From assembly GCA_013425455.1 (NCBI GenBank), contig JACCLI010000077.1, forward strand, positions 1 through 51,203: a DNA stretch of 51,203 nt, given 5' to 3'. The first letter of the stretch is position 1. Every line of letters begins with the position of its first letter. Position numbers and translations under genes: made by a program. Below are positions 1,593 through 30,914 of this stretch, piece by piece. The notes beneath the pieces were generated by a model. It saw nothing but the letters and a program-made list of their open reading frames with translations. It did not search any database and was not told where the DNA came from. Source of the DNA: Candidatus Micrarchaeota archaeon (GTDB taxonomy: Archaea; Micrarchaeota; Micrarchaeia; Anstonellales; Bilamarchaeaceae).

Positions 1593-3428
1593 CTATTTGC
1601 CTTCCATCGCCTTTTTCAGCTCCCCCGCGTCCACCCTCAGCCTGTATTCCCTCATTATCGCCCCGAAATCCTTCTTCTCCCTCACCAGCTTCTTCAGCTC
1701 CGCTCCGGAGATGTGCTCAAGCCCCTTCGCAGCTTCCCGCACTCCTTTCCCAGCGCACATTCCGCGCAAAACATCCGGAATCGCAGCCTTCACAAACAAT
1801 CCCTTTCCGTACTCGGCAAACAATTCCATCAACTGTTCCCGCGGCCTCGCCAATTCCAATCCTTCCCTGCGCAATTCCACCAATGTTTGCTCGAGCGTGC
1901 TTGCGGCGAGCATCGGCTCCGCGCCCGCTTTCACCAATTCCTCAAATAATTGCAAATTCCTGGATTTGAGCATCCTCCCCGCCATCTCCGGATTAAGGAC
2001 GCCCGCGAGCCATTCGCTCTTCTTCTCCAATCCACCTCCCGCAGCCGCCTTCGCTTCCTCCAGCAATTTATCCGTAATAGTAATCGTCTTCAAATCCGTT
2101 TCCGGATACATTCTCGAGCGCCCTGCGAGAGGGCGCATGAAAGAAGATGTCCCATCGGGATTAGCTTTCCTGGTCTCCTCCGGAACCTTCCTCATGTTAG
2201 CCCTTTCCAAAACCTTGTGCAATGCGCGCTCCGCGGTGGTTTTGTGCGCGACCACCATCGCAAAAGCATCCCCTTTCTTCACTCCCAGCTCTTTCCGCAC
2301 CGCCTCCTTCTCCGAATCGCTAATCTTGTATTTCGCAAAATCCTCGTCACTATGGATGATTCCCTTCACTCCCGCGCTCTTCGCATAATCGCTCAATTCG
2401 GTTCCGTACCTCCTTCCTGGCAGAAGCTCATGCCCGATAAGCCCCTCGTGCCCCTCCAAGCGGGCACCCAGCACACAGCCACCAGCATCCATCCCTTTTT
2501 TGATGAGCCCGCACTCGGTTTTTTCAAAAGTTTTCGTAAGGTCCACAATCTTCGGCTTCAACTCTTTTTCCCCGACCCTCTTCTTTATTTCCGCAAGCAA
2601 TTTTAGCAGTTCCTCCTGCCTCTTCACTTCATTTTGCACATAAAGCGGGAGCGTCTTCAAATCCTGCGCGCCCTTTATCTCCACGCGCGTCCCTTTTTCC
2701 GTGGAAACGTTCACGTCCTGCCGTATGGTCCCTATTCCCCGCGCAACCTTTCCCGTCGCACGCAAAATGAGCCCAATCTTTTCCGCCGTTTCCTTGCAAT
2801 GCTCCGCATCCACAATGTCCGGCTCCGTAGCCAGCTCAATCAATGGTATTCCCAGCCTATCCAACCTATAATGTTTGATGTGCGCCTCCTCGGAAACAAT
2901 TCCGGAGCTCTCCTCCTCCACCGCAACCGAAGAAATCCGAACTTTCCCCTTGCTCGTCTCCAGATATCCGCCCGTAGCCACAAGGCACGTGCGCTGGAAG
3001 CCGGAAGTGTTGCTCCCGTCCACAACTATTTTCCTCATTATATGCAGCTCATCAAAAATGTCCATGTGCAATTGCTGTGCAATCCCAAGCACAATGCGAA
3101 GCGCCTCGGCATCCGCCTCCAAGGGCGGCTCCTCGTCCGCCTCCACCAGGCAGCAGCTCTCCGCGAACCCGTCGTAGTGGAATTCCTTCTCCTTCTCCTG
3201 CTCGGTCTTCGCGGCCAAATCCACCTCCCCGGTCTCGCCCGCGCTCGCCCTCAATCTCCTTTTGAATTTGTAATCAGGTTCGCGCTCCGCAAGCTCGGAG
3301 GAGCACCTGCAGAACAGCTTGCCAGTGTCAAGGCGCTGGTGGATCTCAAGCCCGCACTTCATGCGCTGCATTTGTTGGGCAAGATTTATAGAGGATAAGG
3401 CACTTTCGTAGTGGGTAACTTTTTCCAT
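1593..3428 (-). CDS. gatE: Glu-tRNA(Gln) amidotransferase subunit E (GatE)
   Basis: 611-aa ORF with GLEIHQRLDTGKLFCRC and the GatB/E-like core and tail. The real start is probably the internal ATG at 3371 (MQRMKCGLEIHQ) or 3362. The ORF-track N-terminus MEKVTHYE... reads through an inverted-repeat arm. Confidence 0.93.
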   Translation of the reverse strand: MEKVTHYESALSSINLAQQMQRMKCGLEIHQRLDTGKLFCRCSSELAEREPDYKFKRRLRASAGETGEVDLAAKTEQEKEKEFHYDGFAESCCLVEADEEPPLEADAEALRIVLGIAQQLHMDIFDELHIMRKIVVDGSNTSGFQRTCLVATGGYLETSKGKVRISSVAVEEESSGIVSEEAHIKHYRLDRLGIPLIELATEPDIVDAEHCKETAEKIGLILRATGKVARGIGTIRQDVNVSTEKGTRVEIKGAQDLKTLPLYVQNEVKRQEELLKLLAEIKKRVGEKELKPKIVDLTKTFEKTECGLIKKGMDAGGCVLGARLEGHEGLIGHELLPGRRYGTELSDYAKSAGVKGIIHSDEDFAKYKISDSEKEAVRKELGVKKGDAFAMVVAHKTTAERALHKVLERANMRKVPEETRKANPDGTSSFMRPLAGRSRMYPETDLKTITITDKLLEEAKAAAGGGLEKKSEWLAGVLNPEMAGRMLKSRNLQLFEELVKAGAEPMLAASTLEQTLVELRREGLELARPREQLMELFAEYGKGLFVKAAIPDVLRGMCAGKGVREAAKGLEHISGAELKKLVREKKDFGAIMREYRLRVDAGELKKAMEGK

Positions 3429-3454
3429 TTTTACGCAAATTTATTACCCACTAC
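3408..3454. repeat. Perfect 11-bp inverted repeat GTAGTGGGTAA-N25-TTACCCACTAC (copy 1), at the gatE 5' region
   Basis: Arms at 3408..3418 and 3444..3454 read directly from the sequence, with an AT-rich 25-nt spacer. The same architecture recurs at 4407..4453. Confidence 0.9.
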
Positions 3455-3480
3455 AAATCAGCACCGCGGGTTCATCCCAT

Positions 3481-4398
3481 TCACTCCGCCGCCCCAATCC
3501 AAAGGTCCAGCGCCACGCCAAGCTCCTTCGCAACCATCGAAGAAAGGGGCCTGAAATCCCCATCATCCGCGCTTTCCAGCGCATCGTAATAGGACTTGCG
3601 CACCCTCCTCCGCAGAACTATTGGTGGAAACCCTGCCCTCATCAACCTCAGGTTCGAAAGCAGCCGCGCCATCCTCCCGTTTCCGTCCACGAAGGGGTGT
3701 ATCCACGAAACAAGGTGGTGGATTTTTACCGCGGATTCAACCGCCGCGGCGCCCTGCCTCTTTGAGTTCAGCTCGGTTATGGCCTCTTTCATCAGCCCCG
3801 GGACATCCTTCCATTTCGGCGGCATGTGCCTGGACTGCGTTATGAACACCTGCTCCCTTCGATAAAACCCCGCATTCCCCGGGCTTATCCGGTCAAGGAT
3901 CGCCGCGTGCAGCGCCAAAACGTCGCATTCAGCCACCTTCGCCTTCCTGTCCGCGATTTTTCCAAGCAGATGGAGCGCCTCGCGGTGGTTGGTCGCCTCA
4001 AGGTGCTCCCTCATGCTTTTCCCCCCTATCGTTATCCCTTTCTCAAGCACCAGGTAGGTCTCCTTGAGCGAAAGCCTGTTGCCCTCTATCGCGTTTGAGT
4101 TGTAGGTCATATCCACGTCGAATTTCTTCGCAAGGCTTTCAAGCGTATTCCTGGGCAGGGGCCGCAGCCCGTTCAGTTTTTTCAGCTTCCCTTCCAGCGC
4201 GAATGCGGTCCCCTTGTCAAGCATCGCGTATTTCATCGTAGGCGGCTTCAGCCCGTGCCTTTTGCAGTGTTCCAGCATCTTTTCGCGGTTCCCCAGATAC
4301 CTGAGAACGTGCTGCCTCGCCTTGCCGCCCTCCCGCACGCTCTCCACAAGCTCGTAGTAGAATGTTGAGCCTTTCTTCCTTTCCCGCACGAATGCCAT
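3481..4398 (-). CDS. Fic family protein (AMPylase-type), class II with an internal inhibitory helix
   Basis: 305-aa ORF. The canonical Fic motif HPFVDGNGRMARLL matches HxFx(D/E)GNGRxxR. SNAIEGN upstream matches the (S/T)xxxE(G/N) inhibitory motif. The N-terminus KGSTFYYELVESVREGGKARQHVLRYLG is a segment common in Fic proteins. Confidence 0.9.
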   Translation of the reverse strand: MAFVRERKKGSTFYYELVESVREGGKARQHVLRYLGNREKMLEHCKRHGLKPPTMKYAMLDKGTAFALEGKLKKLNGLRPLPRNTLESLAKKFDVDMTYNSNAIEGNRLSLKETYLVLEKGITIGGKSMREHLEATNHREALHLLGKIADRKAKVAECDVLALHAAILDRISPGNAGFYRREQVFITQSRHMPPKWKDVPGLMKEAITELNSKRQGAAAVESAVKIHHLVSWIHPFVDGNGRMARLLSNLRLMRAGFPPIVLRRRVRKSYYDALESADDGDFRPLSSMVAKELGVALDLWIGAAE

Positions 4399-4406
4399 GG
4401 GAAAAT

Positions 4407-4453
4407 GTAGTGGGTAAGAATTTTTAAAATTATCATTTTAGTTTACCCACTAC
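4407..4453. repeat. Perfect 11-bp inverted repeat GTAGTGGGTAA-N25-TTACCCACTAC (copy 2), 8 nt upstream of the Fic start
   Basis: Arms at 4407..4417 and 4443..4453. The spacing is the same 25 nt as copy 1, but the spacer sequence differs. Confidence 0.9.
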
Positions 4454-4463
4454 ATTAGCAGGC

Positions 4464-4492
4464 CGCTGGTGGATCTCGAGGCCGCATTTCAT
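4464..4492 (-). pseudogene. Remnant of a gatE 5' end (encodes MKCGLEIHQR)
   Basis: The 29 nt cgctggtggatctcGagGccgcaTttcat match 3334..3362 of the live gatE at 26 of 29 positions. All 3 differences fall on third codon positions. The reading frame does not continue into a gatE body. Confidence 0.65.
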
Positions 4493-4543
4493 ATACTCAG
4501 CATAATGAATAAAACCTAAAGAAATAATAAAGATGCTGGACGG

Positions 4544-4993
4544 CTATTCTCTGAGCTCTTCTTGTAGGCGCTTTAGCACTCCTTGGATTGTTGCCGGATC
4601 CATAGACCCGAATTCAAAATTCCCACTGTTCTCCATATTAAATTGCATATTGCCTAAAAGGTCTCTCCAACTATCGTTTATCGCATGCCTTGCAGCCACC
4701 ATTGCGTCAAGTGCGCCTGGCAGGCACCTCACATCCTGCTCGTATGCCTCTTTTACAACCCTCATTAATTCCAGAGCCTGCCCATAATTAATATCAAGGG
4801 TCCCCTCCCGCGCCCTCCTGCCGAGCTCATTTACAGCCTGCAGCCGGACTTCCGGGTCCTGATTTTTGCAGAATTGTACGAGCCATTCTGCAGATTGTTC
4901 CGCCATGGGCCCCATGGGATGAATTTCCCTTATGGGAACTGTTGTTGGAAATTGGACTTCCGGAGTTCTTTCCTTTTGTTTAGGTTCAGGCAT
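4544..4993 (-). CDS. Hypothetical protein, paralog of the 9956..10651 product (one copy of a shared ~60-aa helical module)
   Basis: The ORF track gives 4544..5056. I prefer the ATG at 4993 (MPEPKQKERTPEVQFP) because it aligns with MPQPVQKSKEGVEWP of the paralog and sits behind the conserved promoter-like block. Shared module: AVNELGRRAREGTLDINYGQALEL versus AIGELNRRIQNGSLVLSDEQKQNL. Confidence 0.6.
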   Translation of the reverse strand: MPEPKQKERTPEVQFPTTVPIREIHPMGPMAEQSAEWLVQFCKNQDPEVRLQAVNELGRRAREGTLDINYGQALELMRVVKEAYEQDVRCLPGALDAMVAARHAINDSWRDLLGNMQFNMENSGNFEFGSMDPATIQGVLKRLQEELRE

Positions 4994-4999
4994 AGCTTC

Positions 5000-5034
5000 A
5001 CCGTGCAATAGTTCCTTCTCAACATTTATAATAT
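5000..5034 (-). promoter_or_regulatory. Conserved promoter/5'UTR block (TATA-like ATTATAAAT plus GGTG near the ATG), copy 1
   Basis: Plus strand accgtgcaatagttccttctcaacatttataatat versus 10658..10691 accatgcaatattccttctcaatatttataatat. There are two mismatches and one indel, and both copies sit at the same distance from the ATG. Confidence 0.5.
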
Positions 5035-5229
5035 AATAATATCCAGCCAATTTCAAATCTTATCCGTACATCACAACCAACACATATTAGGCTCGCTACT
5101 GCAGATAAAGTTTATAGATTATTCAGCCGCGCAAAATACGCAACCCCAGCGCATAATAATAGGATTTCGCGTATTCTTGCTCGATATAATCCGAGGTGAG
5201 CCTGCCTGCATTAGCCGCAGCAGGAAAAA

Positions 5230-5502
5230 TCATCCTGACTGTTCGCCCGTGACCTCCCTTCTGTAAGTCCTTCTCCTGAACTCGTCCCCACTCTCACTAG
5301 TTACTGAGGGGCGCATCCACCTGTTCCCATCGCTGAATCCGCGGAAACCCCTGTCCATGTCCTCTACCATGATTTCCATCAGTTCAAACATCCTGGCCGA
5401 GCCAGGTAGGAGGGCTTCTTGGCTCTCCCGCTTTGGCATCTTCTTTGAGGCCATTAATTTCCTTGCAGCATCAGCAGGGGCGTTGATTTGTTTTGTGGAC
5501 AT
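5230..5502 (-). CDS. Hypothetical 90-aa protein
   Basis: ORF only, with no motif I can name. Divergent from the giant gene. A hairpin-like cctgcctgc...gcagcagg lies just downstream of its stop. Confidence 0.4.
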   Translation of the reverse strand: MSTKQINAPADAARKLMASKKMPKRESQEALLPGSARMFELMEIMVEDMDRGFRGFSDGNRWMRPSVTSESGDEFRRRTYRREVTGEQSG

Positions 5503-5540
5503 AAGTAATATACTGCAATAGAGTTTTTAAATGTTACGTT

Positions 5541-5557
5541 TTGACACTTATTGACAC
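5541..5557. promoter_or_regulatory. Tandem TTGACAC-N3-TTGACAC direct repeat in a divergent promoter region
   Basis: TTGACAC at 5541..5547 and 5551..5557, a 10-bp period, in the AT-rich 132-bp spacer between the 90-aa gene and the 1314-aa gene. Confidence 0.3.
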
Positions 5558-5634
5558 ATATAACTGAAAAATAATCCGAATCAGGAAACTATTAAAATAG
5601 TCTTTGGGTAATCCAATGCATGGAAGGGATGTGA

Positions 5635-8600
5635 ATGCCTGCCGGAGCGCTGATGGAGCAACCTGGAACTTCTGCAGCCCATATGGTTGAGGAGACCCAG
5701 GCGATGGCCGCCGCCCTGCGCAGCCAGCTTTCCCAGAATTCCAATGCGCTTGCGGGAACTCCCTGCCCCGCCGATATTTTCAGCGGGCTGGATGGGCTCG
5801 CCGAGGAGCGCGTGCATCAGTTTGAGAGCTTCGTGCGTGGGGAATCCTTCTCGGTTTCAGGAAGCGGGATGGGCCGCGAGAACCTTGAGCGCCTTCAGGG
5901 GATTTCTGCCGCTCTTGAGCAATATGGCATAGTAGTTGAAGTGGATCCGGAAGGAGGCAGCTTCACCTTAACCAACAACAATTACATCCCGTTGAGCGTA
6001 ATAACGGAAGAAACGCGTGTTGCGCTCGCCGAGGCCAACAATTTTGCTTCAGGCTGCCTCGAGCAGGCGGATTCCCTGATTTCCCAGGGAAGGCTTGGTG
6101 AGGCAGATGCATACCTTCGGTGGGCCGGGGCAATACAGGCGAGATATTCGGAATATGTGGAGGGCGCAAGGTTCCTGGATGAATTATTTTCCGAGAAGGA
6201 CGGGCTTTCTTCGCTTCCCTCCGAAGGAATTGACGATCCGGGCCGCGCAAGGGAAAAGCTAAGCGAAATCGTAGGATATCCTATTTCCGCGCAGGATTTC
6301 CCTGCGGAATTTGAGCGCAGGATGGGAGTAAGCTGGGAAGATTTCAAGGATAGAGGGTTCGCCTCTTTGGTGGTGCGGAGCATTGACGATGCGATTGGGA
6401 AGATGCAGGAAGGGCTTTCCGCGCTGGAAACGCGGCTGCGCGAGATGTGCGCCGCATCCTCCGAAGCCATAATTGGTGCAGATATGCAGGCATACCTCCC
6501 GCCGCAGGAATATTTGGAGGATGTTTTATTTGCGAGGGATTCTGCCCTTTTTTCTACGGGCATAAAGAAGGACATACTCACAGTAACGGAAGTGAGGGAT
6601 GTAGCGGGAAAACTTAGGGATGAGCGGTTTGAGGGCGTACATGAGTCTGATCTACTTGATATGCTTGATGAAGAAAGGGACCGCATTAAGGGAATGTACG
6701 TGGAGGCGGCGAGCAATCTTGTGGAATCCATTTTACTGAAGGCTCTGATTCCGGTGGGCGAAGGGGCGGAACGCAATGCCGAGATGGAGAGCAATTACGC
6801 GCGGGCACAGGAGGCAAGGCTGAGGGGAGCAGAATTCCTCGCAAGGGGGGAAGGGATGATTCCAGGGCTGAATGCGAAGTATGCTCTTGCCTCCCGGTAT
6901 GCTGGGGTGCAGGATGCGCTGATGGCTAATGATTTTGGGAATGTCGGCACATCGGACCGCGAAGAGCTCATTACAGAGAGGAACAACCTTGTAGATGAAA
7001 TCTCACGCGCGGTAAGGGAAGGCGGCGAAGTGGAAAACCTTGAAGGCAGGATGGCTTCGCTGGACAGGAGCTACACATATATGCAAATCAGGGATTTCTG
7101 GGCGGCCTACCAGTTCGAAGGGGTCGAGGGTGTTGCTGGGAAATTTCGCCTGGAAAGGGACAGGGATGCACTGTTGGATTCCCTTGAGGCTTCACTGCAG
7201 AGCGGCAGCGAGATAGTTAACCTTGACGCGCGGCAGGGTGAGCTGCTTGCAATGCACGAGCGGTGCGCCGCATACGAGCTGCTCGTGAAAACGATTTATG
7301 CCAGCCAGAAGGAAAGGATAGAGGGCATCCAAAATCAATTTTATGAATGGAACGATTCTGTGGAGTACAACCTCAACAGAATTCCCGGGGAAGTGAGGGG
7401 GATAATAGCAACCCCTGGCTTTGAATTTGCCTCCACAGGAGACTACTGCGTTGACACCAATGCCCTTCTTGCGGATTATACCCAAACAAAAAGGCAAATC
7501 AAGAATGATATGTACGGCCTTAGGGACGAAGTGAGAATAGGGTTGGGGGCACTGCTGGGCAATCTTGATGCGTGGTATAACGAGGCGATGGGATACGCGC
7601 CGGTTGATATCGAACTCGACGATTCAGGGGACAACATCACAAATCTCCGCGAGCGCTTCTCATTTGATACGAACCCTGCGCTGGCTAGGCTCAGGGATAT
7701 CCACCAGAACACGGAAGTGGCAGCTGCACACCTCTCGGAAAGGATAGCCGTCATAAATAATCCATTTAACCAGATGGTAAATGAACTCAACAAGATAGTG
7801 GAGTCGCAGCGAACCATCGCAGCCATGTACCAGCTGGCGAGCGCGCTTGACCTGGTGAGTACCGCAACTGTTGGTATATTGGCAGTATGGAACCTCCCCA
7901 CCGTATTCGCAGCAGGCAGGAGCATAGCCAATGCGGGTCGCTCGGCGCTTGCAAGCATAGAGGCAGTATCCCCGGCTGTTGCTACGGGAATAAGGCTTGG
8001 CGCCACCGGCTTATCCCTCGGGTTGAGCGCTTATGGGGGCGTGAAATTCAGTGAAGGGGTGAGCCGGTTAAGGTCGGCAGAAACCGCAGAAGAGAAAGTG
8101 GCCGCAGCCGAACAGATGTTCGAGGGGGCGCTATGGATAGGCTCGCTGGGCTTTGCCTCGCGGCTTTCCCCCGAACTTCTCCGTACGGCGCGCGCAATGT
8201 CAGTAGGGCTGGATCTGGCTTCGATTGCGGCCATTGCCCCTTCCGTTGCCTCCCTCGGCTACGCAATGAGCGAGAGAGGGGATGTAAGCGGATGGGATGT
8301 TGCGAAAATCGCTTTCTGGACCGGCCTGGCGATTACCGGCGCATATGTCGGGATAAGGGTAGCGGGAGGCATGAGGGCGGTTGCGAGGGAAGGCGCGGAG
8401 ATTGCAGGAGAGGCGAAAATAATTTCTATAGATGAATTTGCGCGCGCAATCAGGGAGGCGCCTCCGCCACAGGGGGCCAGGGTTGCGGCAGAAGCTGCTG
8501 CGCCTCCCGCGCCTTTTGTCAGGGAAGCGGAAGCGGCTGCGCCCCCAGGTGCGGTTGTGCCGGAGAGGGTTCCAGCTCCGCGCACAACTCCCGCGGGGCC

Positions 8601-9579
8601 GGCGGCTGCAGAACGGGCTGCTCCGGAAGTTGCGGAAGCGGAGGTTTCCGCGGCCGCAGGGAGGCCCAGCATTTCACTTGTCCCGCGTCCGCAGATGATG
8701 CCGGAACCGGAGGTGGCACAGCGCCTTAGGGAACTGCTCGGCATCGAAGAAGGGCAGGCCGCAACAATGGCACGCGAAGCCACGGCTCGAGGCGTGGACA
8801 TGGCCGAGAGGTTTCAATACATCCGGGACTTTGCAGAAGGGCAAGTCCTAAGGGCACTTCGAGCCCGTTTACTACAAGAACCCGAAGTCTTATATGGAGA
8901 GAAATTCTTTAAGGTGTTTAGCGATTTAGAAAAAAGTGTTCCAGATGCGATAGTAGCCGCGCATAACAGAGCCGGAATCAGGCCACCGGAGGAAGGGGTG
9001 GCCTTAACAAGGGAGGAAATCCGCAAGCTCAGTGATTTGGGGTTGGATTACTTCAGGGACCCCACTGTCCTGCTGCGGGACCTACGAGCTATTTCTAGGG
9101 CGCAAGAGCTTCCGGCTGAGCAGAGGCTGGCCAGGTATATAGACGACTATCAGACAGCCCCCCAAGGAATAAATACTGAAATAAGCACCACCACTGCAGG
9201 GGCTGTAGAGGCACTCCAAAGAATGGGATTCGAATTTGTAAGGGAAGTGAGGGGAAATCACGACGAGTATAGGCGTGCTCTTGCAGATGGAACAATCCAA
9301 ACAGTGGAACTGACCAGAAATCGTGATTATAGTGCTAAACTGCTTAGAACTTACCTACTTGATGATATACGGCGCGGCCAGCGGGAACATTTAATCGACC
9401 AGGGAAGGGAGAGGGAAGCATTCATTAATGAATTTGCCGAAGCTTTCCGCTCGCCACGTTCTTACGAACCGCCGCCGCAGATAACGCTGGCGGAGGCACA
9501 AGAACTTGCCCGGGCAAGGGGTGAGACAAGAAGGGCTGCCGGACAAGAAGGAAGAAGAAGACGTGCTGCGGGGGAGTGA
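5635..9579 (+). CDS. Giant (1314 aa) multi-domain protein: long helical N-region, Gly/Ala-rich TM cluster, Pro/Ala linker, HicA-like C-terminal domain
   Basis: Single uninterrupted ORF. Hydrophobic Gly/Ala-rich helices at about nt 7810..8390 (e.g. VAKIAFWTGLAITGAYVGIRVAGG). A PA-rich linker at about 8450..8700. Nt 9202..9378 encode AVEALQRMGFEFVREVRGNHDEYRRALADGTIQTVELTRNRDYSAKLLRTYLLDDIRRG, which follows the HicA/YcfA pattern (L..GF..vR..GSH......g..v.v........tl..il...g). Confidence 0.8.
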   Translation: MPAGALMEQPGTSAAHMVEETQAMAAALRSQLSQNSNALAGTPCPADIFSGLDGLAEERVHQFESFVRGESFSVSGSGMGRENLERLQGISAALEQYGIVVEVDPEGGSFTLTNNNYIPLSVITEETRVALAEANNFASGCLEQADSLISQGRLGEADAYLRWAGAIQARYSEYVEGARFLDELFSEKDGLSSLPSEGIDDPGRAREKLSEIVGYPISAQDFPAEFERRMGVSWEDFKDRGFASLVVRSIDDAIGKMQEGLSALETRLREMCAASSEAIIGADMQAYLPPQEYLEDVLFARDSALFSTGIKKDILTVTEVRDVAGKLRDERFEGVHESDLLDMLDEERDRIKGMYVEAASNLVESILLKALIPVGEGAERNAEMESNYARAQEARLRGAEFLARGEGMIPGLNAKYALASRYAGVQDALMANDFGNVGTSDREELITERNNLVDEISRAVREGGEVENLEGRMASLDRSYTYMQIRDFWAAYQFEGVEGVAGKFRLERDRDALLDSLEASLQSGSEIVNLDARQGELLAMHERCAAYELLVKTIYASQKERIEGIQNQFYEWNDSVEYNLNRIPGEVRGIIATPGFEFASTGDYCVDTNALLADYTQTKRQIKNDMYGLRDEVRIGLGALLGNLDAWYNEAMGYAPVDIELDDSGDNITNLRERFSFDTNPALARLRDIHQNTEVAAAHLSERIAVINNPFNQMVNELNKIVESQRTIAAMYQLASALDLVSTATVGILAVWNLPTVFAAGRSIANAGRSALASIEAVSPAVATGIRLGATGLSLGLSAYGGVKFSEGVSRLRSAETAEEKVAAAEQMFEGALWIGSLGFASRLSPELLRTARAMSVGLDLASIAAIAPSVASLGYAMSERGDVSGWDVAKIAFWTGLAITGAYVGIRVAGGMRAVAREGAEIAGEAKIISIDEFARAIREAPPPQGARVAAEAAAPPAPFVREAEAAAPPGAVVPERVPAPRTTPAGPAAAERAAPEVAEAEVSAAAGRPSISLVPRPQMMPEPEVAQRLRELLGIEEGQAATMAREATARGVDMAERFQYIRDFAEGQVLRALRARLLQEPEVLYGEKFFKVFSDLEKSVPDAIVAAHNRAGIRPPEEGVALTREEIRKLSDLGLDYFRDPTVLLRDLRAISRAQELPAEQRLARYIDDYQTAPQGINTEISTTTAGAVEALQRMGFEFVREVRGNHDEYRRALADGTIQTVELTRNRDYSAKLLRTYLLDDIRRGQREHLIDQGREREAFINEFAEAFRSPRSYEPPPQITLAEAQELARARGETRRAAGQEGRRRRAAGE

Positions 9580-9583
9580 TGAT

Positions 9584-9859
9584 ATGAAAAGGGCGATAAA
9601 AGTTGGGGATTACACTGCATATGTGGAGCCATATGGAAAGAGTGGCCAGATACGCATCACAATCAAGGAGCTGCCAGACTGCTCAGGCGTATACGATAAG
9701 GATTATTCAGGGATTGTGCCCGATGTGGCACGGAGCCTTATAGCAAGGAAACTGATTGAGATGCGCGCAGAGAGGCTTGAAAAGAAGCGCCCGAAACTGC
9801 GCGTAATAAATGGCGGAAAGGACGAACAAAAAGAAAAGGGAACGCCGCAGCGCAATTAG
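9584..9859 (+). CDS. Small protein (91 aa), HicB-like antitoxin/immunity candidate
   Basis: ATG at 9584 lies 5 nt after the giant gene stop and is preceded by GGGGAG. The ORF-track start at 9506 overlaps the giant gene and was rejected. YTAYVEPYGKSGQIRITIKELPDCSGVYDKDYSGIVPDVARSLIARKL resembles the HicB N-domain pattern (..v.fPdlPGC.t.G.t.eeA...a.eal). The C-terminus is a basic tail. Confidence 0.55.
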   Translation: MKRAIKVGDYTAYVEPYGKSGQIRITIKELPDCSGVYDKDYSGIVPDVARSLIARKLIEMRAERLEKKRPKLRVINGGKDEQKEKGTPQRN

Positions 9860-9955
9860 CCTTTCATCCCTGTAATGCCATCTGCTGTCCGCATGCCCAA
9901 GCAGCACTTCTGCAAGTAAGGTTTATAGAATATTACTAAAAGAAAGGCGCAAGCG

Positions 9956-10651
9956 TCATTCCTGCCCGAACACCATTCCGCCCGGTGGCATCCGCAGATT
10001 TTGCGAAGAGGCATAATCCCTCAATTCAATCGCCATCGGAACCTCATCCGAAGGCATGGACGAAACCCTCATGTTCGCGATGGCCCACCATAGCCTGCTC
10101 GCCTGGTCTCCGCTTAGCCTAAGAGTTCCATCCTCCATCGCCTTGTGGAGTGAGCTTATGGCGCGCAGGACAGCATCAGTATCAACGACCATCAGGCCAT
10201 CGCTGCGTTCCAGATATGGGGGGCTTTCAATCGTTTTTATCGCCTGTTCTGTGAACACAAGATAATTCTGCCTGCCTTGTGGCATTTCCTCTGCAGTTGG
10301 CACCCTCGTGCCAATTGAATTATATGCATCCCTGAGGTCCGTGACGCTTCTTGCCTCCTCTACACTCATGCCTCCAATATTCATATTTAACAGGGCCATC
10401 CGCAGGTTTTGTTTTTGTTCATCACTGAGGACAAGGCTCCCATTCTGTATTCTCCTGTTGAGCTCGCCTATCGCTTCCATGACAGCCTGATCGTCCCGTG
10501 TCAGGTTGCCGTATCTTTCCACATAAGGCGGCTGCATCAGCAAATCAATAAGCTGGCCGCTCGTGCGGCCGTCCATCCTCTGCATGTCGCTCATCGGGAT
10601 GCGTTCCGGCCATTCCACCCCTTCCTTTGATTTTTGTACAGGCTGCGGCAT
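9956..10651 (-). CDS. Hypothetical protein with two tandem copies of the module shared with 4544..4993
   Basis: Internal repeat PPYVERYGNLTRDDQAVMEAIGELNRRIQNGSLVLSDEQKQNLRMALLNMNIGGMSVEEARSVTDLRDAYNS versus PPYLERSDGLMVVDTDAVLRAISSLHKAMEDGTLRLSGDQASRLWWAIANMRVSSMPSDEVPMAIELRDYASS. The start is moved to the ATG at 10651 (MPQPVQK). Confidence 0.65.
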   Translation of the reverse strand: MPQPVQKSKEGVEWPERIPMSDMQRMDGRTSGQLIDLLMQPPYVERYGNLTRDDQAVMEAIGELNRRIQNGSLVLSDEQKQNLRMALLNMNIGGMSVEEARSVTDLRDAYNSIGTRVPTAEEMPQGRQNYLVFTEQAIKTIESPPYLERSDGLMVVDTDAVLRAISSLHKAMEDGTLRLSGDQASRLWWAIANMRVSSMPSDEVPMAIELRDYASSQNLRMPPGGMVFGQE

Positions 10652-10657
10652 AATCAC

Positions 10658-10691
10658 ACCATGCAATATTCCTTCTCAATATTTATAATAT
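10658..10691 (-). promoter_or_regulatory. Conserved promoter/5'UTR block, copy 2 (overlaps the gatD stop codon)
   Basis: See 5000..5034. The TATA-like ATTATAAAT is about 35 nt upstream of the ATG at 10651. Confidence 0.5.
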
Positions 10692-11951
10692 CTCACTTCT
10701 TTCCGTTATCTCGCCAGCAATATTCCCCATCATCTCTTCCTTAACTTTCTCCACTTTTTTCTCGTGCCCCAGAACCCAGCACATCTTCGCATACGCGCAC
10801 TCCGGAGTCCAGTCAGCCAGATGCCCGAACACGCCCGCCTCCTGCAGCATCCTCCCAGCGGCATACATGTCCATGTTGATTCTCCCGAAAATGCACTGGG
10901 AGGCAAATGCAACAGGTATCCCCGAATCAACCAGCGCCTTTAGGTTCGGGGTTATCTTCTTCGCCAATTTGTCCCCGAACGGGTTCGTTGGAACGTGCCC
11001 TATTCCCGTCCCCACAATCACTATCCCGTCATAATCCGACAGTTTGTCCACGAACTCCGGATGTATGCCCGGATATGTATAAACCATCGCAACGTTCTCA
11101 TTTACCCTATTGTCAAATTTCAGCTTCCCGCCCCTTTCCTTGTATTTCATATATGGCTCAATCAGGGAGGAGCGGTAATCCACCTTCGCCAGCGGAGGCA
11201 CATTAATGGACTGGAACGCATCCCTCCTGGAAGTGTGCATCTTGCGCGCCTTCGTCCCTAGATGGATGAGGCACTCCTCGTCGTCGCTCGTCGCGTGCAT
11301 GCATACTCCCACATTCGCCATGGGGCCATTCGCGGCGGCAAAACAGGCGTTCAGCATGTTTATGCGCGCATCAGTCGAGGGGCGGTCCGAGCTCCTCTGC
11401 GAGCCCACCAGATAGATTGGAACGGGCGAGTCCTGCAGCATGAAGGAAAGCGCCGCGGATGTGTAATGCATCGTATCTGTGCCGTGCAGCACCACCACGC
11501 CCTTCACACCGGCATCTATTTCCTTTTTTATTTCCGAGGCTGCCACCGACCAGTGGGCCGGCGTCATGTCTTCGGAGAGTATCGCGAAAACCTCCTTTGC
11601 ATGGAAGGTGCAGATCTTCTCCAGCCCTGGGATATTTTTTGCCAAATCCTCCGGGCTCGTTGACGGAAAAACGGCGCCTGTTTTGTATTCCACCTTGGAT
11701 GAAACCGTGCCCCCGGTCCCTATGATTGCGACGTCCCCCCGTCCTGCTTTCTGGGCATGCTTACCGCTTCCGGCATCTTGTTTTATCTCCACCTCGCCCA
11801 GCTCCTCCACCTTCGCCCCTTCCTTCCTTATGCCCACATTGTAGCCGGAATCCAATTTGAGCACGAGGAATTCCTTTTTCGGGGAAGGAAGCAGGAGCCC
11901 CTCGTATTTCCTCCCTTTCGTTGTTATGCGGACGCGCTTCAGTTTTTCCAT
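10683..11951 (-). CDS. gatD: Glu-tRNA(Gln) amidotransferase subunit D (GatD)
   Basis: 422-aa ORF. N-terminal GatD-specific domain (RVRITTKGRKYEGLLLP) plus an asparaginase-like core (GTGGTVSS, HGTDTM). Confidence 0.95.
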   Translation of the reverse strand: MEKLKRVRITTKGRKYEGLLLPSPKKEFLVLKLDSGYNVGIRKEGAKVEELGEVEIKQDAGSGKHAQKAGRGDVAIIGTGGTVSSKVEYKTGAVFPSTSPEDLAKNIPGLEKICTFHAKEVFAILSEDMTPAHWSVAASEIKKEIDAGVKGVVVLHGTDTMHYTSAALSFMLQDSPVPIYLVGSQRSSDRPSTDARINMLNACFAAANGPMANVGVCMHATSDDEECLIHLGTKARKMHTSRRDAFQSINVPPLAKVDYRSSLIEPYMKYKERGGKLKFDNRVNENVAMVYTYPGIHPEFVDKLSDYDGIVIVGTGIGHVPTNPFGDKLAKKITPNLKALVDSGIPVAFASQCIFGRINMDMYAAGRMLQEAGVFGHLADWTPECAYAKMCWVLGHEKKVEKVKEEMMGNIAGEITERSEIL

Positions 11952-19166: not shown

Positions 19167-19431
19167 GTGATGGGCTAGGCGGGGGCCAGGGGTCCCCATT
19201 CCGCAAATCCCCTTTAGGCGGGCTGAACGCCCGGGGCGTGATTCGCCCGTTTTGCGTCTTTCATCTAAAGCGTCGAAGCCCTCCCTTCTGGGACAGGGGC
19301 TTTATGCGAACCGGGTCAGGCCGGAAGGAGCAGCCCTAAGCGTAGTGCCCCGTGCTCAGGAGCAAGGGGGTGGAGCTGATGGTGAAAGCTCCGCATGGCG
19401 GACGCTTCGCAATCCGGGAAGCCCATCACTC
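19167..19431 (+). ncRNA. Signal recognition particle RNA (archaeal 7S/SRP RNA)
   Basis: The 5' GATGGGCTAGGCGGGGG pairs with the 3' AGCCCATC. The conserved helix-8 region is ACCGGGTCAGGCCGGAAGGAGCAGCCCTAAG. It ends before a T5 run. Ends are estimated by eye (plus or minus 5 nt). Confidence 0.8.
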
Positions 19432-23685: not shown

Positions 23686-26600
23686 ATGGGAAATGCTGGT
23701 AGAACGTGTGCAGTGACACTCTTATCCCTACTTCTCCTCATGCCCCTCGCGTTCTCCCTGTCCGCGACCGCCTGCGCCTCTTGCGGCCTGACCGAGATAT
23801 ATGCCGGCTTCACTCCTGAGGACGCCAGCATGAATGTCGTGCTCACCTCTGACTCCGTGGATTACAGCCAGGTGCGCGACCCTGAGCAGCTGCGCCAGCA
23901 GTACCTGGAGTTCCTTGAAGAAAATTACAACATAGATATCCCCTCCTCCGAGCGGACCGTAACGATCGGGCCGGTCCCAGACGCCAGCATATTCTTCTAC
24001 TACGAAACCTACTCCGTGGACTCAGCCACAGGCAAGCTTGTCTCCACCCGGGCCCAGCTCGAATGCGGCGGAGTCGCCGGCCCGGTCAAGACCGACTCCA
24101 ACGGGGTCGCGAAATGCAAGCTTGATCCCTCCATTTTCACCGGCAAGTGCACCCGCGTCTACATACAGTTCCAGGGCACGCCTTCCCTCAATCCCGCCAC
24201 TTCTTCGGTGCAGGTATGCGATTCCGAGAGCGACGCCTTCTCAGCCATGGCGTCCGCGCTTTCCGGCATAAGCCAGGCCTCCGTGGGCCAGCCGCTCTGC
24301 ATAGTCGCCTTCCTCATACTGGGCCTGTTCATCGCCTCCATGTTCTTCAGCGGCAGGAGCCCGCTCGCCCTCCTGGACATAACCACCCCCCTCCTGCCCA
24401 AGCCGAAGGCCATCTCGTACAGCGGAATGTCCTTCGGGACCGGATATATTCGGATGAGGCGGGAATTGGCGAGCAGGATAAACATATCCTCTAGCATACT
24501 CAAGAGCCAGGCCGCCTTCCTCAAGGCAGACCTGCTCCGCAAGGGCACTAGCCTCAGGGACATAAACGAGATACTCACGCTTGCCAAGGGGAGGCCCCAC
24601 ATAGCCTACCTGGCGCTCCGCGCTTTGAAGGAGGGGAAGACCATGCAGGAGGCTAAGGCGATCGCCGGCCTAAACCCGGGCTTTGGCAAGGGCCAGAAGG
24701 AGGAGGAGTTCGCGGAGGCCCGCAAATGGATAAAACTTCTCCAGAAAGGCGAGAAGGACAAGGCCCTGGACATGCTGACGGACAGGTTCACTGCAGAGAT
24801 GCTTGACAAGGAGGTCGGGCGCATAACCGGCAACGTGCCCGGCAAGCTCGCGAACACCCTGAAGACCGTCCTTGACCACAAATACTCCCCGCTCAAGTAC
24901 ATGATGCCCGAGACCATACGCGAGCAGATAAGGGTCGGCCTGGGCTCAGCATTTTTCGGCGGCCGCAGCGTTGTAGGCGTGACTAAGGTGGCGGCGAAGG
25001 GGCTGGTCCGCGCCGGAGCCGCCGGCCTCACAGCGCTCACAGGCAAGCAGTACAACATCCTCCCATACACCGAGGAGGAGAAAAAGGCGCGCCAGTTCTT
25101 TCTCATGGACATCCGCTCACGCATAGAGCAGTTCTACAAGGTGCAGATGCAGGAGGCGAAGGCCAACGTGGCCATGTACGTCACAAAAAGGCTTCTTGAG
25201 TCCAAGGGCGTCAAGTTTGACCTGAGCGAGAAGGAGCTCCTCGGCCTCGGAAAGATAGAGATCCTTGAGAAGATGAACCTCAAGAACAACCCCAAGGCGG
25301 CCCAGCTCGCCGCGGAGATAAGCAGGATACTGCAGTCCACCGACAAAATTGATGAAAAGATAAGGCTTCTCCGGGCCCTTGCGGATTCCAGCGGCGCCAG
25401 CTATGACAAGGCCGGAGTAAACAGCTTCCTCAACAAGCTTGCGTCTATAGACTCGTCCGGCTCCTACCGCACGAAGCTCCAGAGCCTCCATGACTATCTC
25501 GAAAACAAGTACGAGGTCCACAAGCTGAACTCGGACTTCCGCGGTACCGGGGACAATTTCTACCCGTGGGTCGGGAGGCACAGCTTCCGCTATGTTGTGG
25601 AGGGCGGAACAAAATACGACGACACCTGGAAATTCATGTTCCTCAGGAGCTTTGTCGAGCAGAACGAAAAGGGCCAGAAGGGCATCTCCCTGGGCGACAC
25701 GGCGAAAGTCCTCTGGCTGCGCCTCGTGAACGAGATGTGGGGCCTCTTCCCCTCGGACATGAAGGGCCTCCCGACCGAGCAGCGCCTGATGATGAAGCAG
25801 GCCGAGGAATACCTCCTGAGCCTCCTCTCAGAAAAGGGAAAGGAGATACTGAAGAACGGACTTGTCCTCCCTTCCAAATTCGACGAGAATGGCAATATAA
25901 TCCAGGAAGGCAAGCCAATAAAGATGACCAGCCCGCTCGAGCTCCTCTACAACCCGACAATCGCAAAATCCGGCCTTTTTGTGGGCCAGGAGCTGGCCCG
26001 CGAGATGGGCGCGGACGCCGCCCACTGGAATGTGGACATGCGCGGCTACTGGCGCACCCTGGTCCCGGGCTCCTCCGTCCTTGATTTCGACAACATAGGA
26101 AAGACATCCGTGATGGAGCAGGCATTCGGCGCCGCCTACCGCTCCCACATCGGGCGCAACGTAAGCCCCGAGGTCTTCATGAAGGAGCAGGCGCGGGAAA
26201 TGTTCTACAACCGCATCGTGAGCATGATAGGCTCCAAGTATCCGGACGCCTACCAAACCGGCAGGCAGGAATTCCGCTTCCTGGCCTCCACCTACGGCGC
26301 GTTCAAGGAAAGGTACGCGGAGATATTCGGCCTCACCCCGGAGCGGAAGAAGGACGCCAGCTGGGTGACGGACGACATGGTCGCGGAAATGGTCAAGAAG
26401 GGCGTCAACATAAACGATCTCCACAAATTCGTGTGGATACGCACCAGGGAGGGCAACTACGTCCCGTTCACCGAGGGAAGGGAAGGCTTCGGCATGAGGG
26501 TGAGCGACGGCGAGAGGATAATCAACGGCAAGTTCGTGTACAACGCCGGCAGCCACTGGGAGAGCTTCAACAGCACAAAGCTCCGTGAGAAATACGGAAG

Positions 26601-28587: not shown

Positions 28588-30914
28588 AACCAAGAATCCC
28601 ATTTTTGCTCCTGCTCCTCACGCTCCTGATGTTCGGCTGCATCGACCCGCAGTATTACGAGCGCTCAACCGCGGGCGAGGGCGCGGTGCTCGACATGTCC
28701 CTCGCGAACGCCTGCCCGACAGGGGACTGCATGTGCATGGCCTGCGACGCGCACGGGATGGCCGACCCGGTGTATGCGAAATTCTACACCTTCTCCTATT
28801 ACTACGAGGAGTGCAAGTTCACGAAATGCAACGAGACGGACTTCAACACATACATGAACGCGGAGCCCAACAATGAAAAGATGAACTTTTTCATGATAGG
28901 GCAGGGAGGCTTTGGCGAATTCAACAAGGCCAACCCCTACTGCAACAATTCCCTGCGCATGCCGGTCAAATGGCTGGACAGCCGCTATGGCGCCGGAGAA
29001 TACCCGCTCCCGGACGCCAGGCGCGCGGGCTGCTTCCTAGACAAGGGGTCCATCCCCCTCTACATCCTCTACAGCCGCGGCCAAGCGGCCAGCCCCTCCC
29101 GCGCAGAGGAGATCGCCCACCTTTTTTCCGGGACCATCCTTGGCGACATGGGCCCGATAATCATCACCGCGGAGTTTGAGTTCAACTCCTCCAACCCCGC
29201 AATCCGCGAGAACGTCTCGGCCCAGGTGAAGGCCATGAAGCGCGCCTGCCCGGACTGCCTGATAGCTCTCGCCCCGCGCATATGGGACAACTCCACTGAA
29301 TTGGAAGAGATGTTCCAGGACCAGGCATTCAACAATTCCGTGGACCTTTTCGCCTTTGGGATAAATTCCCATGACTTTAACACCTGCGACCCGACCCGCA
29401 TATATTCGGACGCGGTCCAGTATTCCGAATATCTCCTTTACAAATACAAAAAGCCGTCCGTGTGGGCGTACATCCTTTTCGACAACGACTGGAGCGCGGA
29501 CCAGAGCTGCCACTGGGACGAGTCCCTCCTTTCCAGGGCTTACACGGATTTCTACACGTACCAGCCCGCCTTCCCGTCCACCGGGGTCATCGGCGCGTCC
29601 CTCTATTCAATGTACGGAATAGGCTCCCTCAACTGCACGGACTGCGGCCTTTTCAACATCTCCGGGGACCCCATCGCCTCCAGGCAGGCCTCCTGGTTCT
29701 CCAACTGCCAGGGGCTATTCGCAACATCCAGCGTCCTTCCCATCGTTTTCAGCAACGCCCCGGGCACAACGTGCGCCTTCGGCCAGTCTGCATACAGCTA
29801 CACCGGGGATTCCAGCTTCTACACGGAGCAGCCCGTCCCCACGGAGCCTGCCGGCGCCTGGCCCCAGTTCTACAGCTGCGACTCCTGCATGGTCGAGGTC
29901 AGGCCGGCCTCGATAATGATTTCCCCGAACACGGCATTCAGCGACAGGGCATGCACAGACTTCCCTGTCCTTGACGTATACTCAGACATCCGGGACATAG
30001 ACCCCGCGTACGTGCGCGCCCTTGTCTGGTGGGAAAGCGGAGGCTTCGACGACTGCGAAGTCGGCACCTCAGGCGCACCATGCGGCCGCGTAACGCCCAT
30101 GTATGAGGTTATTGATCCCGACGGACGCTGCCCGGCATACGCGACCCCGTCCTACCAGCGCCCGTCCAAGCATGCCTGCGACATGGGGCTCATCCCGGTC
30201 TTCTCGCCCCCAGAGGACTATTGGGCCGGAATCACCTTCAAGGACTGGATGTATGCCCCGGAAGGAGAGCTTGCAATCGCAAAAGCATGCGCCGGGGATG
30301 AGAAGTTCAACCCCTTCAACGTTGAGCACAACGTCTGCCTTGGCACCTACGAGGTCGCCCAGCACATAAAAACTGCCGAAGGCATTGTCGCATCGAACGA
30401 GGGCCGCCTCGGCCTCACGGCAATAAAGAACGAATACGGCGAGGAGGAATACGAAAACGCAAAAGGCCTCGTTACCCTTTTCATCGCCCGCACGCAGTTC
30501 ATAGCCCCGGAGGTCTGGTCCACCTATGGAAACAAATGGATGAACGATTTTACCAAATATTCAAATTATGACGACCATTTCTGCAGCGGAACTTCTGACC
30601 ACCAGTGCTGCGACAGCGGCCATGTCAGGTATGACCTGAGGAACTGCTGCGGAAGCTCCGATTTCATAAGTTTCGTGACCGACGACACCTGCTGGACGCT
30701 CACGGGCACCAATGTGGAAGAAAAATACAGGGACCCGATCATGAACGCAAAGAAAATAATGGCTCTTTATCTGGGCGTGCGCGAGAAATGCGGAATCTGC
30801 GACGGAGAAAAGTGGAGGGAAAACGTTGAGGAATGGGCGTCCCGGACACCCGAGGGCCCGCGCCCGGCGGTCCCTTCCGTAACAGTTGTTCCGGCTACCT
30901 CCATAATCCCCTAA
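28584..30914 (+). CDS. Cys-rich lipoprotein-like secreted protein (776 aa) with a possible SLT/lysozyme-like domain
   Basis: ATG at 28584 overlaps the upstream stop (ATGA). MKPRIPFLLLLLTLLMFGC is a lipobox-like signal. VRALVWWESGGFDD ... ACDMGLIPV ... FNPFNVEHNVCLGTYEVAQHI resembles SLT motifs ES..F / GLMQ / NI..G..YL. The N-half shows alternating beta/alpha blocks (IPLYILYS, GPIIITAEFEFN, CLIALAPR, VDLFAFGINSH, SVWAYILFD). Confidence 0.75.
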   Translation: MKPRIPFLLLLLTLLMFGCIDPQYYERSTAGEGAVLDMSLANACPTGDCMCMACDAHGMADPVYAKFYTFSYYYEECKFTKCNETDFNTYMNAEPNNEKMNFFMIGQGGFGEFNKANPYCNNSLRMPVKWLDSRYGAGEYPLPDARRAGCFLDKGSIPLYILYSRGQAASPSRAEEIAHLFSGTILGDMGPIIITAEFEFNSSNPAIRENVSAQVKAMKRACPDCLIALAPRIWDNSTELEEMFQDQAFNNSVDLFAFGINSHDFNTCDPTRIYSDAVQYSEYLLYKYKKPSVWAYILFDNDWSADQSCHWDESLLSRAYTDFYTYQPAFPSTGVIGASLYSMYGIGSLNCTDCGLFNISGDPIASRQASWFSNCQGLFATSSVLPIVFSNAPGTTCAFGQSAYSYTGDSSFYTEQPVPTEPAGAWPQFYSCDSCMVEVRPASIMISPNTAFSDRACTDFPVLDVYSDIRDIDPAYVRALVWWESGGFDDCEVGTSGAPCGRVTPMYEVIDPDGRCPAYATPSYQRPSKHACDMGLIPVFSPPEDYWAGITFKDWMYAPEGELAIAKACAGDEKFNPFNVEHNVCLGTYEVAQHIKTAEGIVASNEGRLGLTAIKNEYGEEEYENAKGLVTLFIARTQFIAPEVWSTYGNKWMNDFTKYSNYDDHFCSGTSDHQCCDSGHVRYDLRNCCGSSDFISFVTDDTCWTLTGTNVEEKYRDPIMNAKKIMALYLGVREKCGICDGEKWRENVEEWASRTPEGPRPAVPSVTVVPATSIIP

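Follow-up and report, generated by a model that had tools for sequence, protein, structure and literature searches.

The 51,203-nucleotide (nt) contig JACCLI010000077.1 of Candidatus Micrarchaeota archaeon (assembly GCA_013425455.1; this whole stretch is called the window below) encodes a protein of 1314 amino acids (aa), here called the giant, whose last folded unit is probably HicA-like, and immediately behind it a 91-aa protein, the product of o91. We observed that the giant belongs to a small family in which one conserved carrier bears alternative C-termini, and that a homolog of o91 follows the HicA-like C-terminus in all loci having the upstream sequence (5/5). Our reading, which we hold tentatively, is that the locus constitutes a modular carrier with an exchangeable effector, here a HicA-type RNase, that would be neutralised by the small partner, the glycine- and alanine-rich block in the giant serving to anchor it in a membrane or to insert into one. 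The window itself is of chromosomal origin and comes from a DPANN archaeon: this contig contains an archaeal signal recognition particle RNA (19168-19428), a tRNA-Thr gene and the housekeeping genes for GatD/GatE, Cdc48, topoisomerase VI and EF-1alpha, and between its GatD and the one from a Candidatus Micrarchaeota metagenome-assembled genome (locus L001) the identity is 78%.

The first-pass annotation, made from the letters of the window and its open reading frames (ORFs), had described the giant as a layered protein, and both the ORFs and the layering were verified. Homologs share the same layering and the 91-aa gene has 26 relatives, which confirms that the giant is not a chance ORF. The N-terminal carrier region, proposed to be long, helical and free of a signal peptide, is indeed acidic and helical (net charge from -6 to -12 per 100 aa over residues 1-700), lacks an N-terminal hydrophobic signal, and had no known domain in searches of Pfam, NCBIfam, PHROG, PADLOC and PDB. 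The Pro/Ala-rich linker proposed behind the hydrophobic part is equally evident, since residues 901-1000 contain 30 Ala and 14 Pro. Concerning the about five hydrophobic Gly/Ala helices of the original description, the block as such is real, with hydrophobic segments at residues 733-759, 854-879 and 889-907 and weaker segments in between, and it has invariant Gly and Ala columns in the alignment of five homologs, while its role in membrane insertion is putative, the hydrophobicity peaks being modest (see below). One detail had to be corrected: the small gene was said to start five nt after the stop codon behind GGGGAG, while its ATG at 9584 begins 4 nt past the TGA of the giant and the motif reads GGGGGAG.

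As a separate observation, the only PDB sequences touching the Gly/Ala block (profile A4, positions 737-823) are the Tim17/22/23-type complex I subunits B14.7 and NUJM, with E-values (E) of 5-7; this match is probably compositional and stems from glycine-zipper-like helices.

When all 1.84 billion representative proteins were scanned by HMMER with residues 115-1314 as the query, only seven relatives of the giant were found. Of these, P0001 (1949 aa, E 1.6e-114), P0002 (1812 aa) and P0004 (1283 aa, truncated where its contig stops) align over the N-region and the hydrophobic region only, P0005 (1094 aa) over both the N-region and the C-terminal domain, and the fragment P0003 together with P0006 (265 aa) and P0007 (289 aa) over the C-terminal domain only. 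A metagenome scan with an alignment of the C-terminal domain (A3) yielded one locus, L088, with a giant of 1197 aa. The HicA-like tip is carried by the giants of the window, L088 and L089 and by P0005; P0001 and P0002 have in common an unrelated C-region of approximately 800 aa, which is attributed to P0004 as well. The C-termini of the homologs thus vary on a shared N-region between a HicA-like and an unrelated type, as would be expected for the polymorphic toxin that the first-pass annotation had in mind, although only these two types have been seen on the carrier so far.

The same layering is visible in the alignment of five proteins, all of which comprise the scaffold, the Gly/Ala block with invariant glycines, a variable Ala/Pro linker and a variable end. 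The carrier of the window giant is nearest to P0001 (34-35% identity), which bears the other C-terminus, whereas its tip is nearest to that of the L088 giant (51-54% identity). Since the carrier and the tip have different nearest relatives, we conclude that C-terminal domains have been exchanged on a conserved carrier.

Proteins of the giant family had no Pfam match at E up to 0.1 besides weak matches to HicA_toxin, and a profile search with the whole-family alignment revealed no PDB sequence relative of the carrier. The alternative C-region likewise had no Pfam match, and its best match in a PDB profile search, a dCMP deaminase, was not significant (E 0.21); deaminases are common toxin tips. 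With the full giant, a word-index search among 5.8 billion proteins returned nothing, not even the giant itself; the giant also had no match when one genome of each GTDB species was scanned, and the N-terminal alignment had none in the metagenome scan. Judged from the sequence searches, the carrier family is very rare and has no relatives outside a handful of Micrarchaeota-like metagenome contigs. Separately, o91 is present in the index of 5.8 billion proteins and the giant is not, so the giant is possibly unannotated, or otherwise annotated, in the source record.

The last folded unit of the giant had been proposed to be HicA-like, and several weak tests point the same way. The sole Pfam match of the giant, HicA_toxin (PF07927) at residues 1191-1238, coincides with that unit (nt 9202-9378), with E falling from 0.03 for the whole giant (14.9 bits) to 0.0015 when the last 159 aa are taken and to 2.6e-4 (21.5 bits) when the query is the 67-aa core. 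The cores of P0007 (E 6.4e-3, 17.0 bits) and P0006 (E 1.3e-2, 16.0 bits), each approximately 27% identical to the window core, match the same model, and PHROG 353 ('toxin') matches the same tip residues at E 0.078. When the tip-family profile was compared with 177,635 PDB sequences, the best match was TTHA1913 (1WHZ_A, E 0.26), and the matched fragment itself scores HicA_toxin at E 1.2e-12; in hhalign, the tip family and this fragment align with 94.9% probability over 43 columns, MGF being matched with LGF, G-N-H with G-G-H, and D-G with D-G.

An AlphaFold2 model of the tip built from the five-sequence alignment (predicted local distance difference test, pLDDT, 82.4; predicted template modelling score, pTM, 0.78) has a core of helix 38-47, strands 51-56, 60-67 and 72-78, and helix 85-94, which gives the predicted order alpha-beta-beta-beta-alpha with an extra helix on each side, while a single-sequence prediction for the last 159 aa was an all-helix artefact (pLDDT 49). 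His1209, located in G-N-H, is invariant in all tip-family members that are fused to giants or resemble them and aligns with the histidine of the TTHA1913 G-G-H (the first-pass annotation had read the motif as GNH in place of GSH); further invariant positions of the tip are Y, R, D, Q, Y, E, N and E. A phmmer search of 6093 ORFs of the fetched loci gave no canonical hicA, and thus no large HicA alignment could be built. These tests are individually weak but convergent, and we consider it quite probable that the tip belongs to the HicA superfamily, though not to the curated Pfam family.

The five loci in which an o91 homolog follows the HicA-like domain are the window, L082/L083, L088/L091-L093, L089 and L090, the genes being spaced by 0-25 nt or the partner overlapping the stop codon of the giant. 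In L082 the gene after P0005 (13304-13576, 19 nt past the stop) encodes a protein 46% identical to that of o91, and the L088 giant is followed by an 89-92-aa homolog, of which the GTG-started ORF overlaps the stop of the giant and the first ATG lies 5 nt past it. Conservation of the 91-aa ORF beside the giants with a HicA-like tip has therefore been observed throughout, and in these loci its linkage to the HicA-like domain is solid. By profile search, the partner family comprises 27 members in two subtypes, o91-type and o88-type. In the syntenic locus L086 the first giant, a gene of the famC family (described below), o88 and the same flanks are present, and both the second giant and its small gene are absent; the pair was thus gained or lost as a unit. 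The further expectation, that each C-terminus would have its own downstream small gene, holds for the HicA-like type, whereas the other type is followed by a convergent gene for a protein of 187-240 aa.

A HicB fold of the 91-aa protein is suggested by profile comparisons. The best or second-best PDB match of the partner-family profile is TTHA1756 (2YZT), at weak E of 0.48 and 0.089, and the matched 2YZT fragment itself reaches only E 0.004 to HicB_lk_antitox. In hhalign the partner family matched 2YZT with a probability of 85%, and four solved HicB N-domains, specified in advance, with a probability of 26% (P 7e-4), in register. As for a C-terminal DNA-binding domain of o91, no helix-turn-helix (HTH) or ribbon-helix-helix (RHH) match was found; the helix is followed by a basic low-complexity tail of approximately 30 residues. 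Of the claim that the gene is HicB-like, there remain these marginal similarities to TTHA1756 and the HicB N-domains, without a match to any HicB model among the 27 members.

In L082, L086 and L091 the family occupies one conserved chromosomal site among housekeeping genes. At its start are two to four paralogs (famA) that are secreted, rich in Cys and 176-194 aa long, with signal peptides, and a CxxC...CxxC protein of 51-52 aa, 92% identical between samples; then come the first giant, with the C-region of approximately 800 aa, the convergent gene mentioned above (famB), and a gene of the famC family (256-331 aa) with an 88-aa o88-type partner. The second giant, with the HicA-like tip, and its o91-type partner form the optional end. 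In the window there are no secreted Cys-rich paralogs, no CxxC protein and no famC, only a pair similar to the second giant with its partner.

The famC proteins are homologous to the C-terminal module of the giant, that is, to the pre-toxin helices and the HicA-like domain (hhalign of A14 with famC, 92.3%, E 5.4e-7), and do not have the G-x-H histidine. Together with their partners they resemble the stand-alone cassettes of polymorphic toxins by analogy, though they are situated upstream. In the proteins of the P0006/P0007 type (265-289 aa), an N-domain without an assigned family is joined to a HicA-like domain that keeps the histidine; the genes (L084, 175-972; L085, 127-996), which come from two assemblies, are directly upstream of a class II aminoacyl-tRNA synthetase gene. 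The N-domain of P0007 was considered as a fused partner-like domain and rejected (hhalign 0.1%).

In the window the pair is situated between gatE and gatD. These two genes are directly adjacent in approximately 70 archaeal loci fetched with GatD, usually with a gap of 0-60 bp, and overlap in the closest relative, L001; none of the six island genes was matched by tblastn in 80 archaeal gatD loci. As gatD and gatE are separated here by an insertion with att-like duplications at its borders (Table 1), the giant and o91 were acquired as part of this insertion. Copies of a 23-nt direct repeat bracket o90 (on the minus strand), the giant, o91 and o236. The true gatE start is present in a 34-nt copy (3329-3362, ATGAAGTGCGGGCTTGAGATCCACC...) that is repeated with 85% identity at 4459-4492, beyond the Fic gene, and the perfect palindrome GTAGTGGGTAA-N25-TTACCCACTAC flanks the Fic gene at 3405-3457 and 4404-4456 (0.15 occurrences expected by chance). 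The palindrome and the gatE-start duplication have the look of an att-type scar, which a Fic cassette would have left on entering gatE at its 5' end. The longest gatE ORF begins 22 codons upstream of the start used in L001 (MKCGLEIHQR), and since this extension overlaps the palindrome, the true start is probably the one near 3362. No integrase or transposase was found in the island.

For the Fic/Doc protein there are matches in PADLOC, to the defence candidates PDC-S04 (E 4e-32) and SoFic (E 7.6e-25), and also to PHROG 11900 and the NCBIfam family 'mobile mystery protein B' (E 4e-11, under the cut-off), and hence the gene adjoining the giant is possibly a defence or mobile-element gene.

The mechanism that we propose is that of a two-gene toxin-antidote module on a lineage-specific modular carrier. 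An acidic helical scaffold of approximately 725 aa would be followed by a Gly/Ala hydrophobic module of approximately 190 aa that anchors in, or inserts into, a membrane, and a flexible Ala/Pro linker and the helical pre-toxin region would lead to the exchangeable C-terminal effector. As the effector keeps the histidine in the catalytic position, it most likely cuts RNA. The 91-aa protein, presumably co-translated with the giant, would bind the HicA-like tip and hold it inactive in the producer cell, and the effector would act on RNA only once it is parted from its partner, either by delivery through the hydrophobic module into a neighbouring or host cell, or by loss of the partner within the producer. 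Delivery is favoured by the swapping of effectors, by the stalk-like linker and by the secreted paralogs in the related loci. One may go further and suppose that the Micrarchaeota, which are DPANN episymbionts, have an effector-delivery class of their own, devoid of signal peptides, in which a glycine-zipper-like module joined to a helical scaffold inserts itself into the membrane of a host archaeon or competitor and carries swappable effectors (in the window a HicA-type RNase with HicB-like immunity), having evolved independently of bacterial secretion systems; we regard this as rather unlikely.

A number of observations weigh against a toxin with its immunity protein. Firstly, the similarities are low: the best HicA_toxin score, that of the 67-aa core, is under the curated gathering threshold of 27 bits, the L088 and P0005 cores (two of the five family cores) have no HicA_toxin match, the tip has no similarity to E. 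coli HicA, and a Foldseek search of PDB and BFVD with the confident tip model gave no HicA in the top 50 and nothing significant. The model thus shows the expected order of helices and strands, but Foldseek did not recover HicA, a likely reason for the miss being that the core of approximately 55 residues was embedded in a 136-residue query. All 27 members of the partner family are without a Pfam match at E up to 10, o91 had no PHROG or PADLOC match, and neither o91 nor P0008 and P0012 had an NCBIfam match. Secondly, no route of export is apparent: the giant has neither a signal peptide nor a trafficking, processing or pre-toxin domain of a known kind, its first 1150 residues giving no match in Pfam, NCBIfam or PDB, there are no secretion genes in the window, and the 19-aa Kyte-Doolittle peaks of the giant reach only 1.4-1.67, which is borderline for true transmembrane helices. 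Thirdly, the partners do not always behave as immunity proteins usually do. The o88-type partners are approximately 80-90% identical across samples, more conserved than the usual arms-race immunity proteins; the identities of tip and partner are discordant (51% and 26% for the window vs L088, 30% and 46% for the window vs L082), which would be explained if toxin tip and partner gene had recombined, or by a loose specificity; the first giants are followed by a convergent gene and no co-directional immunity-like gene; and P0006 and P0007 have no partner gene within 10 kb downstream, their contigs ending just upstream. The claim of a polymorphic toxin/immunity pair is thus upheld in its conserved carrier with alternative C-termini and in the linkage of tip and partner, and lacks an export or trafficking element.

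The absence of a signal peptide and of a trafficking domain would be natural if the giant never left the cell, being an intracellular, membrane-anchored, multidomain toxin-antitoxin (TA) module of the HicAB type or an abortive-infection module, in which the N-region serves as a sensor or scaffold and the tip is released upon virus attack or stress. This would agree with the tight toxin-then-antitoxin order, similar to that of hicAB, and with the Fic/Doc neighbour in the island and its matches to defence candidates; moreover, RelE/ParE TA folds are documented in multidomain defence toxins (PMC11980606). The occurrence of the same carrier with a different C-region in P0001 and P0002 more naturally fits a carrier that swaps effectors, however, and the secreted Cys-rich paralogs beside the family elsewhere hint at an extracellular function; the stalk-like Pro/Ala-rich linker after the hydrophobic region and the lack of a PADLOC match for the giant or o91 also speak against it. 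On balance, such a module is somewhat unlikely, but as a rival it has to be taken seriously.

The conserved chromosomal position in L082, L086 and L091 could alternatively indicate that the giant serves a DPANN symbiont in a structural or host-interaction capacity and is not toxic, with the tip as an RNA- or protein-binding module of the dsRBD type (double-stranded RNA-binding domain) and the small protein as its chaperone or adaptor. The high conservation of the o88-type partners, the discordant similarities of tip and partner, the missing histidine of the stand-alone famC copies, and the occurrence of the P0006/P0007 domain beside a tRNA synthetase gene with no partner downstream would all be in line with this. 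Nevertheless, in giant-fused or giant-like members the histidine at the catalytic position is invariant together with the polar residues listed above, the partner is gained or lost along with the domain, and the window pair resides in a recently inserted island rather than in a core locus, and hence we consider a non-toxic role decidedly doubtful.

The likeness to a phage tape-measure protein, or to another component of an integrated archaeal virus or plasmid, which the first-pass annotation offered as its own alternative because of the helical and Gly-rich hydrophobic layout, and to which one could add the inserted island bounded by short duplications, is very improbable, as the sole PHROG match is the weak 'toxin' one and no tape-measure family, tblastn found nothing in 50,697 phage records (INPHARED) and 72,556 plasmids (PLSDB), three queries found no relative in IMG/VR, genes for a capsid, terminase, portal, integrase or replication are all missing from the island, and the homologs are located among housekeeping genes.

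Table 1. Features of the giant locus, its island and the related loci. Positions are nucleotides of the window unless a locus or protein is named.
Feature	Position	Strand	Remarks
gatE	1593..3428		longest ORF; true start probably near 3362
Insertion between gatE and gatD	3429..10682		7.25 kb; contains Fic, o170, o90, giant, o91, o236
Fic/Doc-family gene	3481..4398	-	island
o170	4544..5056	-	island
23-nt direct repeat, left copy	5012..5034		96% identity between copies; includes last gatD codons
Intergenic region	5503..5634		divergent, AT-rich, between o90 (-) and giant (+); read from sequence, putative promoter
Giant ORF	5635..9579	+	1314 aa, ATG start, TGA 9577-9579; modular carrier and C-terminal HicA-like domain
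N-terminal carrier region	5635..7809	+	residues 1-725, acidic, helical; conserved in P0001, P0002, P0004, P0005
Gly/Ala-rich hydrophobic region	7810..8370	+	residues 726-912, 3-5 weakly hydrophobic helices, conserved glycines; candidate membrane-insertion/anchor module
Ala/Pro-rich low-complexity linker	8371..8700	+	~residues 913-1022, aligns poorly between homologs
Helical 'pre-toxin' region	8701..9096	+	~residues 1023-1154; common only to HicA-tipped giants and stand-alone famC
HicA-like domain	9097..9483	+	residues 1155-1283, extra helix N- and C-terminal; core 1187-1243, His1209 in G-N-H
C-terminal tail	9484..9576	+	Arg/Ala-rich, not present in homologs (alignments)
GGGGGAG Shine-Dalgarno-like motif	9570..9576	+	7 nt before ATG of 91-aa gene; putative function
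91-aa partner gene o91 (NCBI H0O01_04615, hypothetical protein)	9584..9859	+	candidate antitoxin/immunity protein, possibly HicB-N-like fold
o236	9956..10666	-	island
23-nt direct repeat, right copy	10669..10691		true gatD end / o236 start
gatD	10683..11951		right flank of island
Alternative C-region	P0001 ~1000-1949 (residues); L082 5774-8029; L091 2110-4506
Secreted Cys-rich / CxxC proteins	L082 511-2304; L086 1090-2332; L086 2377-2535; L087 1047-1202		upstream of first-giant genes
Stand-alone famC, each followed by 88-aa partner	L082 8757-10000; L086 9220-10253; L088 500-1758

Several further observations concern the island and the rest of the window. A stretch of approximately 45 nt, comprising the last gatD codons, a TATA-like ATATTATAAAT and an ORF start, occurs both at 4990-5034 and at 10646-10691, upstream of o170 and o236, and the o170 and o236 products have paralogous N-termini, with 30% identity over 79 aa. 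On visual inspection, o236 also seems to have within it two tandem repeats of approximately 80 aa (PPY[VL]ER...). Both proteins were considered as relatives of famA or famB of the other loci, and this was rejected. Two further large ORFs on the plus strand, 23686-28587 (1633 aa) and 28542-30914 (790 aa), have signal-peptide or lipobox-like N-termini and no Pfam match; as candidate relatives of the giant family they were rejected, BLAST showing no relation.

Compared with the known HicA proteins (TTHA1913, 1WHZ; E. coli HicAB, 6HPB), the tip likewise has a predicted alpha-beta3-alpha order, with strand 1 followed by the G-x-H histidine, ahead of strand 2, and strand 3 preceded by a D-G turn. 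Whereas canonical HicA is a free toxin of 60 aa, here the domain is the tip of a much larger protein, with an extra helix on each side and a Pfam score below the cut-off, and the canonical P-x-H after strand 3 is replaced in the window family by an invariant Tyr. On the partner side, the N-terminal pattern of o91 (two strands, a P-x-C turn and a helix) aligns in register with the HicB N-domains, but canonical HicB (PF15919 / PF05534) has an HTH or RHH domain where o91 has the basic tail, and o91 matches no HicB model; some single-domain HicB-like proteins, TTHA1756 among them, are also without an HTH or RHH domain. The toxin-first order and the near-overlap of the partner are the same as in hicAB.

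The first-pass annotation also took a HicA domain fused to a large carrier to be undescribed. This was too broad, as HicA has been published as a C-terminal toxin domain of polymorphic toxins from Gram-positive bacteria (S8-PTS BetaH and one RHS protein; 2022, PMC9424270), and hence the novelty is limited to the archaeal occurrence and the new carrier. Shared with the bacterial systems (PMC9424270; Zhang et al. 2012, PMC3482391) are a large conserved carrier, alternative C-terminal effectors, a small gene directly downstream, a HicA fold as the effector and, in the relatives' loci, a stand-alone C-terminal module with a partner of its own. However, no relation exists between this carrier and those of the RHS/YD, BetaH, LXG, filamentous haemagglutinin, PAAR and similar types; a signal peptide, a processing domain such as the S8 peptidase and an associated secretion system are all lacking; the giant comes from an archaeon (DPANN), with only two C-terminal types so far, and the stand-alone module is upstream, not downstream. 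Polymorphic toxin systems are reported to be rare in archaea and, for the most part, apparently derived from bacterial ones (PMC3482391), and our literature search revealed no paper linking DPANN or Micrarchaeota with HicA fusions. None of the three families, those of the carrier, the extended HicA-like domain and the partner, is annotated, and each is very rare.

Nuclease colicins and pyocins (colicin E3/E5/D) offer another comparison: as is seen or proposed for the giant, they are devoid of a signal peptide and combine a long helical body with a C-terminal killing domain of the RNase type and an immunity gene directly downstream, the product of which would stay bound until entry into the target. 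In contrast to them, the giant is not known to have a sequence or detectable structural relation to colicins and no lysis gene is present here, and its Gly/Ala block is more similar to the hydrophobic hairpin of pore-forming colicins than to anything in the nuclease ones.

While polymorphic toxin/immunity systems are well mapped in bacteria, next to nothing is known, as far as we are aware, of the means by which DPANN symbionts combat their competitors or influence their hosts. The locus is a compact candidate for such a role, consisting of a carrier with no relatives outside those few Micrarchaeota-like contigs, a small expressible effector with a single predicted catalytic histidine, and a 91-aa partner. 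Even if the giant is not exported, it would still be the first described membrane-anchored giant module of the HicA type, as far as our literature searching goes. In either case, a fold of toxin-antitoxin systems, HicA, would have been recruited to a large archaeal carrier, in parallel to what has happened in Gram-positive bacteria (PMC9424270).

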